A stretch of DNA of 64,000 nt, taken from positions 115,194 to 179,193 of the forward strand of contig JAUIJD010000004.1 of assembly GCA_030431475.1 (NCBI GenBank), written 5' to 3'. Of this stretch, positions 10,277-45,651 are shown in pieces. This DNA is from Verrucomicrobiia bacterium. Lineage in GTDB: Bacteria; Verrucomicrobiota; Verrucomicrobiia; Verrucomicrobiales; Akkermansiaceae. Below the pieces are notes generated by a model. It made no database searches. It saw nothing but the letters and a program-made list of their open reading frames with translations, and was not told the origin of the DNA. Position 1 is the first letter of the stretch, and each line of letters starts with the position of its first letter. The position numbers and the translations under genes were made by a program.

Positions 10277-11479
10277 ATGTCCGCCGCACGACGCTACGCC
10301 TTCGGCTTCCTCGGCGCCGTCGCCTGCTTCACCCTCATCGCGGCGGCGATCAACACCTGGGTCAACCCGCTCCGGGTCACCCCCGCTCCGTGGTCGGATC
10401 CCGGGTTCGAAGACTACCGGGAGATCGACAGCCAGATCCGCACCGGCAAGGCGGGCATGCTGCGCTCCACCGATCACCCGGACGCCGTCTTCGTCGGCTC
10501 GTCGCGGGTCGCGAACGGCTTCGATCCGGGCTTCGACGCCTGGGGCGAGCAGCAGGTGCTCAATCTCGGCTGCTCGGGGGGCTTCCTCTTCGAAACGATG
10601 GGCATCACCCGCCACCTGCTCGAGAACGAATCTCCGTCGGTCATCCTCTTCGGCGTCGATCCCGGCGACCTCTCGAACCCGATCGACACCCGACCGCTCG
10701 GTGACTACTACGCCTCCCCCTTTGCGGAAGGCGGAGACCGGCTCGACCGCGAGATGCGATACCTGATCGGCATCTCGACCCTCGAGATCTCCCTCGAAAC
10801 GCTGAGCCGGAAGAGCAAGGGCAGGCTGGCCTCCTACACCCCCCAGGGACTCCGGGTCCGCTCCGACAAGGCGGGACAGCGCAAGCAGATCGAGTTCATT
10901 CGCAGCCGGCTGCTCGGCGAGGCCTTCCTCGAGGACGACGGCCGGAAATCGAAGGCCGTGAATGAGGAGAAGCTCGCCCAGCTCGAGGAGATGCTGCGGC
11001 TCGCCCGCGAACACGGCACCCGCGTCATCCTCTACATCCACCCCCAGCATGCCGCGATGCACGCCCGCGCCGCCGACATCGACAATCCGCCGGTCATCTT
11101 CGAACCCGAGCGCCCGGCGCTGGTCGCCCTGGTCGAACGGGTGAACGCCGCCGACCTCGACGGCCCCAAGATCGAACTCTGGGACTTCTTCGACTTCCAC
11201 CCGATCAACTGCGAACCGCTGCCCCTGGACAGCGGCGACCGGATGCGCTTCTGGGGCGACCTCGGCCACTACTCGGTCGAGGTCGGCAACGCGATGCAGG
11301 CCCGGATGATGGGCTGGGACGTGCCGCTCGAAGCCGCCACGGACTACGGCGTTCGCCTCGATCCCTCCAACCTGGAGTCGCGCCTCGAACAGGTGCGGCA
11401 GCAGTACGGCGACTACCTGCGCGGACCCGGTGCCCGCGACGTCCAATGGAAGGAAGAACTCTTCAACGAAGCGAAGTGA
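10277..11479 (+). CDS. Membrane-anchored SGNH-like partner of an MBOAT (AlgJ/DltD/PatB-like), copy 1
   Basis: N-terminal TM helix, FVGSSR (block I-like Ser), C-terminal DLGH (DxxH); paralog of 14643-15893; TTGACA at 10241. Confidence 0.6.
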   Translation: MSAARRYAFGFLGAVACFTLIAAAINTWVNPLRVTPAPWSDPGFEDYREIDSQIRTGKAGMLRSTDHPDAVFVGSSRVANGFDPGFDAWGEQQVLNLGCSGGFLFETMGITRHLLENESPSVILFGVDPGDLSNPIDTRPLGDYYASPFAEGGDRLDREMRYLIGISTLEISLETLSRKSKGRLASYTPQGLRVRSDKAGQRKQIEFIRSRLLGEAFLEDDGRKSKAVNEEKLAQLEEMLRLAREHGTRVILYIHPQHAAMHARAADIDNPPVIFEPERPALVALVERVNAADLDGPKIELWDFFDFHPINCEPLPLDSGDRMRFWGDLGHYSVEVGNAMQARMMGWDVPLEAATDYGVRLDPSNLESRLEQVRQQYGDYLRGPGARDVQWKEELFNEAK

Positions 11480-11483
11480 CGCG

Positions 11484-13010
11484 ATGATCTTCAATTCGTA
11501 TCCCTACCTCTTTCTGTTCCTGCCGCTGGCCCTCATCGGCTTTCACCTGCTGAGGCGCGCCCCGTTCCGCGTGTCGATCGGCTTTCTGGTGCTGATGAGC
11601 TTCGTCTACTACGGGTGGTGGCGCCCGCAGGACCTGTGGGTCATCGGCGCGTCGTGCCTGTTCAACTACTTCGTCGGCCGCCGGATTTCGGATCAGCGGG
11701 GCCGAAAGGAGGGATTCACCGTCCTCACCATCGGCGTGGTGGCCAACCTCGCCCTTCTCGGGTGGTTCAAGTATGCGGGTCTCTTCGACAAGACCTTCGC
11801 CGCCCTCACCGGCGAGGGGCTCGACCTGACGCACATCATCCTGCCCCTCGGCATCTCGTTCTTCACCTTCCAGCAGGTCGCCTACCTGATCGACGCCTGG
11901 CGTGGGGAAACCGAGGAGTATCACTTCACCGACTACCTGCTCTTCGTCACCTTCTTCCCCCAACTCATCGCCGGGCCCATCGTCCACCACAAGGAGATGC
12001 TGCCGCAGTTCCAGCGGGGAAAAGGACGGGGCCTCCGCTCACTCGATTTCTCGGTCGGCGTCACCATCATCGCCTTCGGCCTGTTCAAGAAGGTCGTCCT
12101 CGCCGACTACCTCGCCCGAACCACCGGCCCGATCTTCGACATCGCGGCCGACCCCGATGGCCGGGCCCTCACCACCGGCGAGGCCTGGGCCGGGACGCTC
12201 GCCTACACGCTGCAGATCTACTTCGATTTCTCCGGCTATTCGGACATGGCCATCGGCTCCGCCCGGCTGTTCGGCATCCGCCTGCCGCTCAACTTCCATT
12301 CGCCCTACAAGTCGGTCTCGATCGTCGATTTCTGGCGTCGCTGGCACATGACGCTCTCACGCTTTCTGCGCGACTACCTCTACATCCCGCTCGGCGGCAA
12401 CCGCCTCGGGCCGGCCCGGCGCTACGGCAACCTCATGATCACCATGCTGCTGGGCGGACTGTGGCACGGCGCCGGCTGGACCTTTCTGATGTGGGGTGCC
12501 CTGCACGGTCTCTACCTCTGCATCAACCACGGCTGGCACCACCTGCGGCGGACCCTCCGGCTGCCCGCCATTCCAAAGCCGGTCGCGATCGGCCTCACCT
12601 TCCTCGCGGTGGCGCTGGCGTGGGTCCCCTTCCGTGCCGGCAACTACGAGCTCGACCCGGGCGGCACCACCGGATCCGCCCTGGGCGCCACCGGCGACCT
12701 GCTGGCCTCGATGTTCGGCCTGAACGGGTGGAGCTTCTGGCCGCCGGACACCGCCATCGCGGTCAAGGACAGCCGCGCCTTCCGCCCCATCGTGCTGGGG
12801 CTCATTCTCGTCTTCTTCTTGCCCAACACCCAGGAGGTCATGCGCCGCTACTGCCCGGCCATCGGCCTGCCGAGACCCTCCGAGGGCTACCGCAGGCGCT
12901 GGTGGCAGTGGCGCCCGACCCTGCCCTGGCTGGCCGTCACGCTCGGCCTGCTCTACGTCGTCGGACGCGAGTTCGACCAACTGAGCGAGTTCATCTACTT
13001 CCAGTTCTAG
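11484..13010 (+). CDS. MBOAT O-acyltransferase (AlgI/PatA/DltB-like), copy 1
   Basis: MIFNS, LPLGISFFTFQ, FFPQLIAGPI, YFDFSGYSDMA, FWRRWHMTLS, GLWHGA, C-terminal EFIYFQF. Confidence 0.92.
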   Translation: MIFNSYPYLFLFLPLALIGFHLLRRAPFRVSIGFLVLMSFVYYGWWRPQDLWVIGASCLFNYFVGRRISDQRGRKEGFTVLTIGVVANLALLGWFKYAGLFDKTFAALTGEGLDLTHIILPLGISFFTFQQVAYLIDAWRGETEEYHFTDYLLFVTFFPQLIAGPIVHHKEMLPQFQRGKGRGLRSLDFSVGVTIIAFGLFKKVVLADYLARTTGPIFDIAADPDGRALTTGEAWAGTLAYTLQIYFDFSGYSDMAIGSARLFGIRLPLNFHSPYKSVSIVDFWRRWHMTLSRFLRDYLYIPLGGNRLGPARRYGNLMITMLLGGLWHGAGWTFLMWGALHGLYLCINHGWHHLRRTLRLPAIPKPVAIGLTFLAVALAWVPFRAGNYELDPGGTTGSALGATGDLLASMFGLNGWSFWPPDTAIAVKDSRAFRPIVLGLILVFFLPNTQEVMRRYCPAIGLPRPSEGYRRRWWQWRPTLPWLAVTLGLLYVVGREFDQLSEFIYFQF

Positions 13011-13087
13011 CGCCCCGAATCGGCGTTGCATCGGGCGGCACCGCCCCCTAAACCCTCCGGGACCCGCCGCCGGCACGGAAAGCCCCG

Positions 13088-14638
13088 ATGATCTTCAATT
13101 CATACACCTTCCTGCTGCTTTTCCTGCCGCTCACCCTGCTCGGGTTCCACCTGGTCGGGCAGCGCAACCTGCGGGTCGGCTTCGCCTGGCTGGTGCTGAT
13201 GAGCCTGGTCTACTACGGCTGGTGGAACCCCAACCCCGCCGAGCCCTGGTCGCCGTGGTGGCTGTGCCTCATCCTCGGGTCCTCCGTCACCAACTTCTTC
13301 CTCGGCCGGGCGATCACCTCCCACCGGGGCGTGCGCGCCGGCTTCGGCATCCTCACCGCCGGGGTCGTGGCCAACCTCGGGGTGCTCGCCTGGTTCAAGT
13401 ATGCGGGCCTTTTCGCCAAGACCATGGTCGCGCTGACCGGCGGCGGGATCAATTTTCCCGACGTCATCCTGCCCCTCGGCATCTCCTTCTTCACCTTCCA
13501 GCAGATCGCCTACCTGGTCGATGCCTGGCGCGGCGAGACGAAGGAGTACCACTTCACCGACTACCTGCTCTTCGTCACCTTCTTCCCCCAGCTCATCGCC
13601 GGACCCATCGTCCACCACAAGGAGATGCTGCCGCAGTTCCAGCACGGACGCTACAACTCGCAGCGCTGGGTGAACTTCTCGGTCGGTCTCACGATCCTGA
13701 TCGCCGGACTTTTCAAGAAGGTGGTGCTGGCCGACAACTTCGCGCCCATCGCCAACCGCCTCTTCGGGCTGGCCCTTTCCGGAGAGCGTGACCTGACCAT
13801 CGGCGAGGCCTGGACCGCCGCCACCTCCTACGGCCTGCAGATCTACTTCGACTTCTCCGGCTACTCGGACATGGCGATCGGTGCCGCCCGCCTTTTCGGC
13901 ATCCGCCTGCCGCTGAACTTCCATTCCCCCTACAAGGCCACCTCGGTGGTCGACTTCTGGCGGCGCTGGCACATCACCCTCTCACGCTTCCTCCGCGACT
14001 ACCTCTACATCCCCCTCGGCGGGAATCGACGCGGACCGTCCCGGCGCTACGTCAACCTGATGCTGACCATGGCCCTCGGTGGTCTCTGGCACGGCGCCGG
14101 CTGGACCTTCGTCCTGTGGGGGGTGCTGCACGGGCTCTATCTCTGCGTCAATCACGGCTGGTTCGCCCTGCGCAAGCACCTGAAGTGGCCGTCGCTGCCC
14201 AAGCCGGTTGCGATCCTGCTGACCTTCGTCGCGGTCATGACCGCCTGGGTTCCCTTCCGTGCCGGTGGTTTCGAACTCGGTCCCGACGGGTCGACCCACA
14301 AGGCGCTGGCCGCCACCGGGCGCATCCTCGGTTCGATGTTCGGCCTCAACGGTTTCGAGGGCTGGCCGGACCGCAGCGCGATGATGGTCAAGGACAGCCA
14401 CGCCTTCCGGGCCGTTGCCTGCGTGCTCCTGGTGTGGCTCCTGCCCAACACCCAGCAGTGGATGCGCCGCTACCAACCGGGACTCGGCCTTTCCAGCCTG
14501 CCCGGCGGCGGGCTCGGCCCTCGGCGCTGGTGGCAATGGCAACCCAGCGTCGCCTGGGGGATCTTTCTGATCCTGCTGATGGCGGGAACCATCTACCAAT
14601 TCGACAAACTCAGCGAGTTCATCTATTTCCAATTCTGA
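13088..14638 (+). CDS. MBOAT O-acyltransferase (AlgI/PatA/DltB-like), copy 2
   Basis: Same motif set as copy 1, ending SEFIYFQF. Confidence 0.92.
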   Translation: MIFNSYTFLLLFLPLTLLGFHLVGQRNLRVGFAWLVLMSLVYYGWWNPNPAEPWSPWWLCLILGSSVTNFFLGRAITSHRGVRAGFGILTAGVVANLGVLAWFKYAGLFAKTMVALTGGGINFPDVILPLGISFFTFQQIAYLVDAWRGETKEYHFTDYLLFVTFFPQLIAGPIVHHKEMLPQFQHGRYNSQRWVNFSVGLTILIAGLFKKVVLADNFAPIANRLFGLALSGERDLTIGEAWTAATSYGLQIYFDFSGYSDMAIGAARLFGIRLPLNFHSPYKATSVVDFWRRWHITLSRFLRDYLYIPLGGNRRGPSRRYVNLMLTMALGGLWHGAGWTFVLWGVLHGLYLCVNHGWFALRKHLKWPSLPKPVAILLTFVAVMTAWVPFRAGGFELGPDGSTHKALAATGRILGSMFGLNGFEGWPDRSAMMVKDSHAFRAVACVLLVWLLPNTQQWMRRYQPGLGLSSLPGGGLGPRRWWQWQPSVAWGIFLILLMAGTIYQFDKLSEFIYFQF

Positions 14639-19354: not shown

Positions 19355-19765
19355 ATGGCGTTCCCCTGCAGCCCCTACGACGAAATCGACGGCCTCATCT
19401 ACTTTCCCCGGATGTGCGACAAGATCCGCCTCCACCAGCGGGGCGAGCTTCCGCAGGACTACCACGCCAATCTCGGCAGCGGCATGGATCTGTGGACCTG
19501 CCAGTTCCTCGGCGTCGATTACGAAGGCCTCGCCGAGCAGGTCCGCGCAGGGGCCGACGACGAGATGACGCTGATCTGGGCCCGCCGCCACGGCGTCGCG
19601 CGGCCCGACCACGAGTTTGCCTGGTGGAGTGCCTACATGCGCACCCGGGGTTTCCGCGACGATCTGGCCGAGCGCCTGGACCAGCGGAAGAAGGAGTCGG
19701 GATTCGAGGATCGCAGGGATATCCAGACCTTCATGGACTACATCGACGCCGACGAGGGCCGCTGA
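19355..19765 (+). CDS. DUF5069-like protein
   Basis: SPYDEIDGLIYFPRMCDKIRL..GELP.DY..NLG.GMD...CQFLGVDY; 3' end of ORF-track entry 16565-19765. Confidence 0.7.
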   Translation: MAFPCSPYDEIDGLIYFPRMCDKIRLHQRGELPQDYHANLGSGMDLWTCQFLGVDYEGLAEQVRAGADDEMTLIWARRHGVARPDHEFAWWSAYMRTRGFRDDLAERLDQRKKESGFEDRRDIQTFMDYIDADEGR

Positions 19766-19851
19766 GAAATTCCTTGTAGGCTGAAGGAAAACGAGTTATT
19801 CACATCGCAACGTCGCACCCACGACGTCGTCGAGATCCACCCCGCTCGTTC

Positions 19852-20664
19852 ATGTTCCCCAAACAGCTTCTTTTTTCAGGCGCGATCCTTGCCTTCGCTG
19901 CCTCTCCTGTCGTCGGGCAGACCTTCGGCTATGACGGCACCTCGCCGTATGCCCCGAACACCTACCGCATCGTTCAGGACTACGTGGCCCAGGACTCGGG
20001 TGGAAACCCGGCGGCGATCAACTTCAACAACAGCACCGGATCCGGCCCCAACCCCTACTCGGTGAATCCCGTGGGCCTCAAGCGGACCACCGTCACCCTC
20101 GGCGACGGCAGCGAGGTCACCGTCACGGATCTCTGCACCCAGATGTTCGTCGGCCCCACCGGAACGTCGACCTACGACGTCGCCGCCGGCTTCGGTTCTC
20201 TCTCCGCCACTCAGGAAAACGATCTCCGGGCGCTGTTTTCAAACACGCTCGCCGATTTTCTGCTGATCGCCGCATCCGACTACGATCAGGCGGCCACTTT
20301 CGGCGCCGCCATCCAACTGGCCGCTTGGGAGATCATCGAAGATGATCAGTTCGGCACCGGCTTCTACTCTCTCGATGACAATCCCGTTGGGGTTCCCGGC
20401 GCGTTTGATTTGTCCGTGATCGACTTCGCGTCCGGCTACACCGGCACCGCCGCCGATGCCCTTCTTCTCGCCGAGAGCCACCTCGCGGAGATCAACGCCG
20501 GCAACTGGACGGACAACGGCGGCTACAACTACTTCTACGCCTCCGCCCAGGCGGGCGAGCAGGACCGGATGTGGATCACGGTCGGAACGACCACCATCCC
20601 CGAACCCTCGACTGCTCTTCTCGGCCTCGCGGGTGGCCTGCTTCTCCTGCGCCGCCGCCGCTGA
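19852..20664 (+). CDS. PEP-CTERM (exosortase-targeted) surface protein
   Basis: Signal peptide; C-terminal IPEPSTALLGLAGGLLLLRRRR. Confidence 0.92.
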   Translation: MFPKQLLFSGAILAFAASPVVGQTFGYDGTSPYAPNTYRIVQDYVAQDSGGNPAAINFNNSTGSGPNPYSVNPVGLKRTTVTLGDGSEVTVTDLCTQMFVGPTGTSTYDVAAGFGSLSATQENDLRALFSNTLADFLLIAASDYDQAATFGAAIQLAAWEIIEDDQFGTGFYSLDDNPVGVPGAFDLSVIDFASGYTGTAADALLLAESHLAEINAGNWTDNGGYNYFYASAQAGEQDRMWITVGTTTIPEPSTALLGLAGGLLLLRRRR

Positions 20665-20685: not shown

Positions 20686-20720
20686 AAGCCCGCCTTTCCC
20701 CCGTGGACGGCGGGCTTTTT
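20686..20720 (+). terminator. Intrinsic terminator
   Basis: AAGCCCGCC / GGCGGGCTT stem followed by a T run. Confidence 0.75.
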
Positions 20721-20764
20721 CGTGGTCCGATCCTGTCGGCTTCCACGCGTTTCCTCCGATGCGC

Positions 20765-28823: not shown

Positions 28824-30320
<1,497 letters not shown>

Positions 30321-30564
30321 GACGAAAGTAACTTTGAGGGTGAAGGGAGTGCTTCAGACGGAGAGAATGACCTGCCGATGCCGTCAACCGGGGTCGACAC
30401 GGGCCACCGGAGGCACCAGGAAGGCGGACGGATGAATTCCCACCCGGGCCGCAGGCCAGCACGAAAACCATTGAAGGTCAAGCCCTGAGAGCAGCATCTT
30501 CCGCGCCATCCACGGCACCGATGCCGGGAACTCCCCGCGTCTCAAGCTCTGCCGGGCGAGCGGA

Positions 30565-37126: not shown

Positions 37127-45115
<7,989 letters not shown>

Positions 45116-45579: not shown

Positions 45580-45651
45580 CGCCCCCGGGAGGAATCGAAC
45601 CTCCATCTAAGGTTTAGGAAACCCTTGTTCTATCCGTTGAACTACAGGGGC
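45580..45651 (-). tRNA. tRNA-Arg (anticodon CCT)
   Basis: GCCCCTGTAGTTCAACGGATAGAACAAGGGTTTCCTAAACCTTAGATGGAGGTTCGATTCCTCCCGGGGGCG: 7-bp acceptor stem, anticodon loop TTCCTAA, GGTTCGATTCC T-arm; CCA not encoded. Confidence 0.95.

Follow-up and report, generated by a model that had tools for sequence, protein, structure and literature searches.

A stalk-less, PEP-CTERM-tailed candidate thioester domain protein in a Haloferula-like verrucomicrobial bacterium

Thioester domains (TEDs) described up to a 2026 preprint come from adhesins of Gram-positive Firmicutes and Actinobacteria, in which sortase anchoring and long, cross-linked stalks serve for display. Their reactive cysteine lies in a [YFL]CΦζ motif; the glutamine with which it bonds lies in a weak ΦQζΦΦ motif on the C-terminal β-strand, 129 to 171 residues further on (spacings of 152, 153, 129, and 171 in the solved TEDs; PMC4450167, PMC6194298). 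A further motif, TQxxΦW, places a Gln and a Trp on helix α2, where they hydrogen-bond the Cys backbone and are dispensable for the bond (Walden 2015, PMC4450167; Miller 2018, PMC6194298). No residue of TQxxΦW is fully conserved among TEDs, and its Gln is a helper in every characterized TED, where mutating it leaves bond formation intact (Walden 2015, PMC4450167). Class I TEDs (CpTIE-TED, 5A0G; SfbI, FbaB, and Cpa of Streptococcus pyogenes; PF08341) have no β-sandwich insert, whereas class II TEDs (SaTIE, 6FX6; BaTIE; EfmTIE86; pLS20-type conjugation adhesins) carry a β-sandwich of ~75 residues between α3 and the P-Q hairpin, forming a slipknot.

A different display route is used by PEP-CTERM/exosortase cargo (TIGR02595; e.g., the flocculation protein PepA of Zoogloea, NF033554), the hosts of which also include floc- and biofilm-forming environmental bacteria. 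Such cargo has a signal peptide, a PEP motif, a transmembrane helix, and an Arg cluster; none of the named PEP-CTERM families has been described with a thioester domain. Our literature search found no paper linking thioester domains with exosortase or PEP-CTERM, and no experimentally shown TED or thioester in a diderm bacterium.

The window analyzed here is the whole stretch of 64,000 nucleotides, and the gene of interest, from a Haloferula-like bacterium, occupies 19852..20664 on the + strand. It has an ATG start, encodes 270 amino acids, and ends with a stop codon at 20662-20664; no other long ORF with sensible features lies at this position. The ORF list, the sequence, and the homologs together define the product as a secreted, PEP-CTERM-tailed, TED-like protein. 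By eye the N terminus is Sec-like, with a basic n-region (K4) followed by a hydrophobic core, and direct reading of the sequence delimits a signal peptide at residues 1 through 22 (MFPKQLLFSGAILAFAASPVVG; 19852..19917, +). The same reading predicts cleavage before Q23 (VVG followed by Q, with small residues at -3 and -1) and reveals no lipobox in the N terminus; Q23 is invariant across the close subfamily, and AlphaFold renders residues 5 through 16 as an isolated, low-confidence helix. The TED-like domain follows (residues 23 through 247; 19918..20592, +), its assignment resting on AlphaFold2, Foldseek, and profile-level similarity to Pfam TED and to class II TEDs, and the protein ends with the sorting signal. 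A hairpin resembling an intrinsic terminator (GCCCGCC...GGCGGGC, then TTTTT; 20686..20722, +) begins 22 nt past the stop codon, as identified by a terminator scan and by sequence reading.

The gene looks functional, given its conserved Haloferula context, its metatranscriptome coverage, and this terminator. It is flanked by DUF5069 upstream and a class I fumarase downstream, an arrangement conserved in Haloferula; the Haloferula helveola orthologs lie in the same DUF5069/fumarase setting, and WP_338686068.1 is an ortholog from that species. Contigs from four biofloc metatranscriptomes cover the gene, and those of RNA run X18 span 19727-20623 with the flanks uncovered. The gene neighborhood offered no functional link or hint. 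No second PEP-CTERM gene or TED paralog was found within the 64,000-nt window, and an exosortase was not among the ten window ORFs scanned against Pfam.

The C-terminal sorting signal (residues 248 through 270, IPEPSTALLGLAGGLLLLRRRR; 20593..20661, +) reads IPEPS...LLLLRRRR-stop. It passes NCBIfam TIGR02595 (PEP_CTERM) with a score of 17.9 bits, where the cutoff is 16, while scoring 16.6 bits with Pfam PF07589, under the cutoff of 20.7. The sequence features of PEP-CTERM cargo are present: the PEP motif, the hydrophobic helix, the C-terminal basic cluster, and the N-terminal signal peptide. Homologs keep the tail, and nearly all family members have one of three exosortase-type tails (PEP-CTERM, PEPxxWA-CTERM, or VPLPA-CTERM). 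The proposal of the preliminary description, that exosortase displays this PEP-CTERM-tailed protein on a PVC cell, is supported. Matches to PepA and to other named PEP-CTERM families (NF038129, FxDxF, and the like) are restricted to the tail region and fall under the respective cutoffs, and they were rejected as tail-driven. The signal starts ~10 residues after the single TED-like domain; Pfam and NCBIfam scans and the model reveal no LPXTG and no further Pfam domains, so that the architecture of TIE proteins (sortase LPXTG plus a stalk of cross-linked Ig-like domains) is not that of this protein.

Two confident AlphaFold2 models were obtained (pLDDT 86.3 and pTM 0.83; pLDDT 89.7 and pTM 0.89). 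The predicted domain consists of N-terminal β-strands, three helices (119-140, 144-167, and 198-216), and a C-terminal β-hairpin (225-232 and 239-244). Its elements begin with the Cys strand and one further strand, continue through α1, α2 (which carries QxxΦW), and α3, and end, past a linker of 8 residues, with the Q237 hairpin; this order agrees with the class I topology of Miller 2018 (PMC6194298). When both models were compared with the PDB using Foldseek, the sole credible matches were 5a0g and 5a0d, the TED of Clostridium perfringens CpTIE (probability 0.87-1.0; E down to 9.5e-4; target-normalized TM 0.45-0.53), although with a query-normalized TM of 0.33-0.43 and an rmsd of 5.7-10 Å the match is borderline for the same fold. 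All other matches had probabilities <0.15; other solved TEDs were not retrieved, with the exception of SaTIE at rank 32 (TM 0.35, E 1.9).

Three segments of the predicted domain correspond to the TED motifs. The translation confirms exactly one cysteine, C95 in TDLCTQMF (codon TGC, 20134-20136), and an AIQLAAW segment carrying Q155 (CAA, 20314-20316) and W159 (TGG, 20326-20328), as had been reported. The Cys motif D93-L-C95-T-Q97 (20128..20142, +), identified through conservation, the model, and alignments, is the counterpart of [YFL]CΦζ; L-C95-T-Q conforms to that pattern within a β-strand, with C95 at the end of predicted strand 88-95. The segment A152-A-I-Q155-L-A-A-W159-E160 (20305..20331, +), identified through conservation, its helix, and alignment, is the counterpart of TQxxΦW: I-Q155-L-A-A-W159 has the Q-to-W spacing, the hydrophobic residue before W, and a position inside a central helix (predicted helix 144-167). 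The third segment, E236-Q237-D-R-M-W241 (20557..20574, +), is the counterpart of ΦQζΦΦ on the grounds of conservation, spacing, and strand position. Here Q237 (CAG, 20560-20562) opens the last strand, after the 8-residue α3 linker and within the hairpin in the AlphaFold models; it corresponds to the conserved Gln of the C-terminal strand, and the local E-Q-D-R-M fits ΦQζΦΦ loosely. The spacing from C95 to Q237 is 142 residues, inside the 129-171 range of solved TEDs, whereas that from C95 to Q155 is 60 residues and outside it.

Searching with the 270-aa protein yielded one 99%-identical protein and 26 further homologs; the family as a whole comprises >200 proteins of ~250 residues each from Verrucomicrobiota, Planctomycetota, and Alphaproteobacteria, and its alignments span mean identities of 15-22%. 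Among 230 aligned relatives W159 is kept in all 230, C95 in 226, Q237 in 226, Q155 in 222, and E160 in 212. In a 113-sequence alignment (A3) with a mean column identity of 15%, C95 is kept throughout (113/113) and Q237 in 111, the remaining two being truncated proteins; the only invariant columns of a diverse core alignment (A4) are C95, Q155, W159, E160, and Q237. The pattern of C95, Q155, and W159, near-constant in 230 relatives although the mean column identity of A3 is only 15%, goes beyond chance. Q237 is the third conserved residue, one that the preliminary description had missed; it is absent from no full-length Cys-bearing relative, the exceptions being truncated or also Cys-less. The residue before the family Cys is Phe (66 of 113), Tyr (23), Leu (7), Val (6), Trp (6), or Ile (5); the Cys is followed by a residue such as Ile, Val, Ala, or Leu and then by Asp (52), Glu (50), or Gln (7). 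The helper pattern is A-x-Q-x-A-Φ-W-E, with Ile before the helper Gln in the 270-aa protein and Thr in only 6 of 113 relatives, and the C-terminal pattern in A3 is Q-[DNS]-x-Φ-Φ. Mean-field direct coupling analysis (DCA; 230 sequences, Neff 213) returned gap artifacts and local contacts as its top couplings and was uninformative about pairing between the strand of the Cys and the final strand.

Direct scans of the 270-aa protein against Pfam, NCBIfam, and PDB sequences found the PEP-CTERM tail alone, and neither PF08341 nor TIGR03934 matched even at E ≤ 10; the link of this protein to TEDs is therefore transitive. PF08341, the Pfam TED model, matches 37 of 113 relatives at E ≤ 0.01, and of ten relatives inspected, one (P0077, 26.7 bits) exceeds its gathering score of 22 bits; a profile of the subfamily to which the 270-aa protein belongs retrieves P0077 from 1.84 billion proteins at E 9.4e-6. 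In hhalign, the family aligns with six class II TEDs from staphylococci and enterococci, including the experimentally verified SaTIE, with probabilities of 77-88% and E-values between 3e-6 and 2e-5. C95 aligns on SaTIE Cys296 in both HMMER and hhalign, and QxxΦWE of the family aligns on SaTIE TQMLIWE, with AIQLAAWE opposite ATQMLIWE. Q237 falls on SaTIE Gln467 only in a global hhalign alignment after deletion of the class II insert, at 14% probability. Searched against PDB sequences, profiles A1 and A3 gave the SaTIE TED at E 0.39 or nothing; the SaTIE and class II profiles found only SaTIE itself and missed the class I TEDs, because TEDs are too divergent. As class I retrieval from the PDB failed, the mapping of the Gln rests on insert-deleted class II proteins. 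Taken with the conserved motifs and the CpTIE match, these links bear out the earlier suggestion of a TED-like domain, and support C95 as the candidate thioester cysteine; we consider it very likely that the protein is a divergent homolog of TEDs.

With class I TEDs the protein shares the order of elements, the lack of a β-sandwich insert, a [YFL]CΦζ-type Cys motif, QxxΦW on the middle helix, and a Gln that opens the last strand ~140 residues on. It differs from them in its diderm PVC host, in its PEP-CTERM/exosortase rather than LPXTG/sortase anchor, in having neither an isopeptide/ester stalk nor fibronectin-binding repeats, and in ~50 extra N-terminal β-strand residues; Ile or Met takes the place of the Thr in TQ, the sequence is sub-threshold in Pfam, and the thioester is a candidate only. 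Class II TEDs provide the best sequence-profile link, over the segment from Cys to α2, and share with the family the W-E pair after QxxΦ. Their hairpin also resembles the one here ("LVYTSGNAQKVGVL" versus "YFYASAQAGEQDRMWI"), but where they carry the slipknot-forming β-sandwich the present protein has its 8-residue linker.

The preliminary description joined C95 to Q155 within AIQLAAW, taking as known a Cys-Gln bond between [YF]C and TQxA(I/V)W motifs; that statement merges two TED motifs, the Gln of TQxxΦW not being the bond-former (PMC4450167, PMC6194298). Q155 is indeed highly conserved, and by analogy with solved TEDs it is expected near the Cys, but such closeness is neither proof nor refutation because the helper Gln is also near the Cys in real TEDs. 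The pairing is not supported by the other evidence: Q155 sits in a predicted helix rather than a strand, its 60-residue spacing falls outside the range of solved TEDs, the same Gln is the mutation-tolerant α2 helper of all characterized TEDs (PMC4450167), and seven full-length relatives have Ala or Gly at 155 while retaining both C95 and Q237. A C95-Q155 thioester is thus very unlikely; by analogy with the literature, AIQLAAW is the helper motif, and the likely bond partner of C95 is Q237. The CTQ of the 270-aa protein, with a Gln two residues past the Cys, also invites comparison with the short CxEQ-like motif of α2-macroglobulin/complement C3-type thioesters (C95-T-Q97). This reading, to which we give next to no credence, was rejected since Gln is not conserved at position 97, where 102 of 113 relatives have Asp or Glu and only 7 have Gln; in addition, the spacing is i+2 rather than the i+3 of CGEQ, and Foldseek gave no match to the α/α-toroid TEDs of C3/A2M.

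The one invariant Cys of this exported protein might instead be the catalytic nucleophile of a secreted enzyme of papain-, NlpC/P60-, or transglutaminase-like type, and the class II TED profile does have a chance-level match to an NlpC/P60 peptidase (E 0.2). Neither a His nor an Asp/Asn triad partner occurs in the invariant or near-invariant columns, however, and the lack of a conserved His led us to reject an enzyme; Pfam and NCBIfam gave no peptidase or transglutaminase family match, and enzyme matches in Foldseek all had probability <0.15 and TM <0.2, which leaves this reading highly improbable. A TED-derived fold devoid of a thioester, binding its target noncovalently and keeping C95 and Q237 for a free thiol, a metal, a disulfide-linked dimer, or structure, is unlikely. 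In its favor, three relatives (P0234, P0054, and P0123) have lost the Cys and retain the rest of the domain, so a thioester is not required for the fold to be maintained; the 270-aa protein falls short of every curated TED model, and the literature offers no experimental thioester from a diderm. Against it, near-absolute joint conservation of the Cys and the C-terminal Gln at 15-22% identity is a TED signature that is hard to explain otherwise, P0054 has lost C95 and Q237 together, and, with only one Cys in most family members, no intramolecular disulfide can form in these.

In the reading that we favor, as a probable one, the protein belongs to the bacterial TED superfamily as a diderm-adapted form with one domain and no stalk, with a C95-Q237 thioester and exosortase anchoring; that the C95-Q237 bond actually forms is, in our judgment, also probable. 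A point against it is that the lone Cys must cross an oxidizing periplasm. After export the domain would fold, and C95, at the end of a strand equivalent to TED β-strand C, would attack the side-chain amide of Q237, at the start of a last strand equivalent to TED β-strand Q. Ammonia would leave, giving the internal Cys-Gln thioester, while Q155 and W159 on helix α2 may form hydrogen bonds to the Cys backbone, like their counterparts in Gram-positive TEDs. Exosortase would recognize and cleave the PEP-CTERM tail and deliver the domain to the cell surface or into the exopolysaccharide matrix, held only ~10 residues from its anchor point. A target nucleophile, most likely a primary amine on an amino sugar or on a lysine of a protein, would then attack the thioester; Q237 would become joined to the target by an intermolecular bond of isopeptide type, and the thiol of C95 would be freed. 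Given that the sequence occurs in biofloc, plastic, and aquatic metagenomes, the probable role would be to attach covalently to particles, hosts, or neighboring cells; for adhesion or flocculation specifically, we hold the case to be evenly balanced.

A wider proposition, on which our judgment is equally divided, is that stalk-less, exosortase-exported TEDs are widespread and almost unannotated in Verrucomicrobiota, Planctomycetota, and Alphaproteobacteria, where C95-Q237-type thioesters may link cells covalently to their neighbors, to matrix polymers, or to surfaces that bear amines. If true, thioester "harpoon" domains would not be confined to Gram-positive bacteria, and covalent adhesion chemistry would extend to another cell envelope and sorting machinery. 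The large and poorly understood class of PEP-CTERM cargo would gain one concrete biochemical function, and protein-ligation technology would gain thioester modules that are compact, comprising one domain of ~225 residues. For environmental diderm bacteria the finding would mean covalent flocculation and attachment to particles or hosts, and it would point to a way in which aquatic Verrucomicrobia and Planctomycetes attach in flocs, in biofilms, and to particles.

The ORF at 19852-20664 (+ strand, ATG start) encodes a 270-residue protein with a single cysteine, C95, within TDLCTQMF, and with Q155 and W159 in an AIQLAAW segment. Read directly, its N terminus (MFPKQLLFSGAILAFAASPVVG before the predicted cleavage point and QTF after it) has Sec signal peptide features and no lipobox; the C terminus (IPEPSTALLGLAGGLLLLRRRR) passes the NCBIfam PEP-CTERM model (17.9 bits; cutoff 16) and falls slightly below the Pfam cutoff. 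The preliminary description of the ORF was correct. Q23 (19918-19920), the first residue past the predicted cleavage, is invariant in the close subfamily and, speculatively, could cyclize to pyroglutamate. A terminator-like hairpin and T-run lie 3' of the stop codon, the gene looks monocistronic, and no second PEP-CTERM gene or thioester domain (TED) paralog occurs in the 64-kb window (66.5% G+C).

A word-indexed search returned 27 homologs, one of them 99% identical; the named ones belong to Haloferula helveola (72% identity), Haloferula sp. A504, and a Verrucomicrobiota MAG. D93, C95, G101, Q155, W159, Q237, and R239 are invariant in their alignment. An exhaustive search of 1.84 billion representatives with a profile of the trimmed core (A2) gave 117 proteins at E ≤ 1e-3, nearly all 200 to 310 residues long (a few are shorter fragments) and nearly all ending in PEP-CTERM, PEPxxWA-CTERM, or VPLPA-CTERM tails; most have a single Cys. 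The 100 proteins listed from a search with the profile of diverse cores (A4) include Planctomycetota (Botrimarina, Pseudobythopirellula, Gemmata), Brocadiia, and Sedimentisphaerales, as well as Sphingobium and Paracoccus; none of these 100 carries a precomputed PF08341 annotation. Source names of the relatives are only "hypothetical" or [quoted passage not shown] In one subgroup (P0213, P0220, P0227, P0228, and P0229; named members include Sedimentisphaerales and Brocadiia), Ala replaces the Gln of AIQLAAW (AFAxAVWEIV); these proteins have three to four cysteines and retain the Cys and C-terminal Gln positions.

In known TEDs, the bond-forming Cys lies in a [YFL]CΦζ motif on β-strand C and the C-terminal β-strand Q carries the bond-forming Gln within a weak ΦQζΦΦ motif, while the Gln and Trp of TQxxΦW on helix α2 hydrogen-bond the Cys backbone and are dispensable for thioester formation by mutagenesis (Walden et al. 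2015 PMC4450167; Miller et al. 2018 PMC6194298). In TEDs of solved structure, the bonded Cys and Gln are 152 residues apart in SfbI (C109-Q261), 153 in PnTIE (C94-Q247), 129 in CpTIE (C138-Q267), and 171 in SaTIE (C296-Q467) (PMC4450167; PMC6194298). In the window protein, LC95TQ matches the Cys motif and IQ155LAAW159 the QxxΦW motif; Q237 (EQDRMW), 142 residues C-terminal of C95, occupies the position of the bond-forming Gln.

The window protein itself matches neither PF08341 nor TIGR03934. Among its relatives, 37 of 113 match the Pfam TED at E ≤ 0.01, and in ten inspected cases the match starts at the Cys (profile position 2-3) and extends as far as the QxxΦW helix (position ~71-78). One of the relatives, P0077, which the A2 profile retrieved with an E value of 9.4e-6, scores 26.7 bits, above the gathering score of 22. 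A profile of 113 family sequences (A3) aligned FCIE / AiQlAvWEI to IAFCIE / ATQMLIWEL of the SaTIE TED at E 0.39. We also compiled a class II TED set comprising a SaTIE-like protein, identical to SaTIE over 65 aligned residues and near-identical to 6FX6 across the TED, and five class II relatives from Enterococcus and Vagococcus plasmids. The family core aligned to class II TEDs in hhalign with a probability of 87-88% (E 3-4e-6), and A4 to the class II profile (A5) with 77% (E 2e-5); in every such alignment, the Cys matched Cys296 and QxxΦWE matched TQMLIWE. Global alignment after deletion of the class II β-sandwich insert put Q237 on Gln467 with only 14% probability, a sequence-based placement that is suggestive only. 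At four of the Enterococcus plasmid loci (L002, L004, L005, L006), a LysM-domain protein gene directly precedes the TED adhesin gene, ~150-180 nt upstream of it; at the SaTIE-like locus (L001), the PLSDB table has no annotated feature for the corresponding stretch.

AlphaFold2 models from the 27-sequence alignment (pLDDT 86.3, pTM 0.83) and of the core alone (pLDDT 89.7, pTM 0.89) predict several N-terminal strands; a strand (88-95) terminating in C95; a next strand (108-112); helices 119-140, 144-167, and 198-216, the second containing Q155 and W159; and, beyond a linker of 8 residues, two strands (225-232 and 239-244) flanking a turn that contains Q237. Class I TEDs have this element order: in them, strands C and D, α1, α2, α3, and a ~10-residue linker precede the P-Q hairpin (Miller et al. 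2018 PMC6194298). For both models, the sole credible Foldseek match in the PDB is the Clostridium perfringens TED (5a0g and its C138A mutant 5a0d; probability 0.87-1.0, E 9.5e-4 to 4.4e-2), with TM scores of 0.45-0.53 normalized to the target and 0.33-0.43 to the query; the remaining matches each have a probability <0.15, and SaTIE (6fx6) ranks 32nd (TM 0.35). The modeled likeness to the TED fold appears real, yet is moderate. From the equivalent topology, we infer that C95 and Q237 would be adjacent.

A C95-Q155 thioester, as proposed from the sequence originally, takes the Gln of TQxA(I/V)W as bond partner and is contradicted by the literature, which makes that residue a nonessential helper; Q155 also sits in a predicted helix, and the spacing does not fit. 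Seven full-length relatives have Ala or Gly at position 155, and all seven keep C95 and Q237. Across all 230 collected relatives, W159 is present in 230, C95 and Q237 in 226 each, and Q155 in 222, and no full-length Cys-bearing relative lacks Q237. C95 and W159 are invariant in A3 (mean column identity 15%), where Q155 and Q237 are each found in 111 of 113 sequences and the two lacking Q237 are truncated; in the 31 sequences of A4, only C95, Q155, W159, E160, and Q237 are invariant. The original idea is partly supported, with the bond partner corrected from Q155 to Q237.

The main alternative to a C95-Q237 bond is a TED fold without a thioester, because three full-length relatives (P0234, P0054, P0123) have lost the Cys, with Ser, Thr, and Phe instead; P0054 lacks Q237 as well. 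These are possibly "dead" TEDs and potential natural negative controls. A cysteine enzyme is unlikely, since the family conserves neither a His nor any other residue of a catalytic triad. Most relatives have Asp or Glu at position 97, which excludes a CxxQ thioester of the C3/A2M type.

The gene order DUF2256/DUF3253, DUF5069, TED gene, class I fumarate hydratase is also found in H. helveola, and Haloferula sp. A504 retains the fumarase neighbor; no partner gene is evident in the TED gene neighborhood. Metagenomes of biofloc, plastic, aquatic, and food origin contain near-identical sequences, as do contigs from four metatranscriptomes of biofloc or aquatic origin. Contigs of RNA run X18 span the TED gene and leave the flanks uncovered, which is compatible with transcription, although RNA-library contigs may include DNA. 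Four contigs of RNA run X16 start at 19776-19779, ~75 nt 5' of the ATG, which may be the transcript 5' end; a consensus scan found no sigma-70-like promoter. Elsewhere in the window, tandem MBOAT-family O-acyltransferase genes (11310-13010 and 13052-14638, +) and a family-2 glycosyltransferase gene (28824-30353, −) form a possible polysaccharide-modification cluster, and a comparable neighborhood lies upstream of the H. helveola ortholog. A 2662-residue ORF (37127-45115, −), with no Pfam match at 1e-5, overlaps two long + strand ORFs, 39375-41804 and 41801-44956, and a single tRNA gene (45580-45651, −) is the sole Rfam match in the window at the gathering threshold.

Sequence, models, and homology point to the export signal, fold, and sorting tail; the thioester chemistry and biological role we infer. 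Following Sec export, the protein would fold into a TED and form the C95-Q237 thioester autocatalytically, releasing NH3, with Q155 and W159 assisting; an exosortase would recognize and cleave the PEP-CTERM, and the domain would then be displayed on the cell surface or within the matrix, where attack by a target amine would create a covalent link via Q237. Specificity is likely determined by the variable N-terminal strands and the low-confidence loop 168-197, as the "specificity loop" of TEDs suggests by analogy (Miller et al. 2018 PMC6194298). Full-text literature searches found no paper connecting thioester domains with PEP-CTERM or exosortase, and neither curated models nor source annotations label this family as TEDs. 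Moving the bond partner to Q237 calls for a different decisive experiment. The window protein would carry the same domain as known TEDs, presumably with the same chemistry, but it differs from them in envelope and anchor and in having no stalk.
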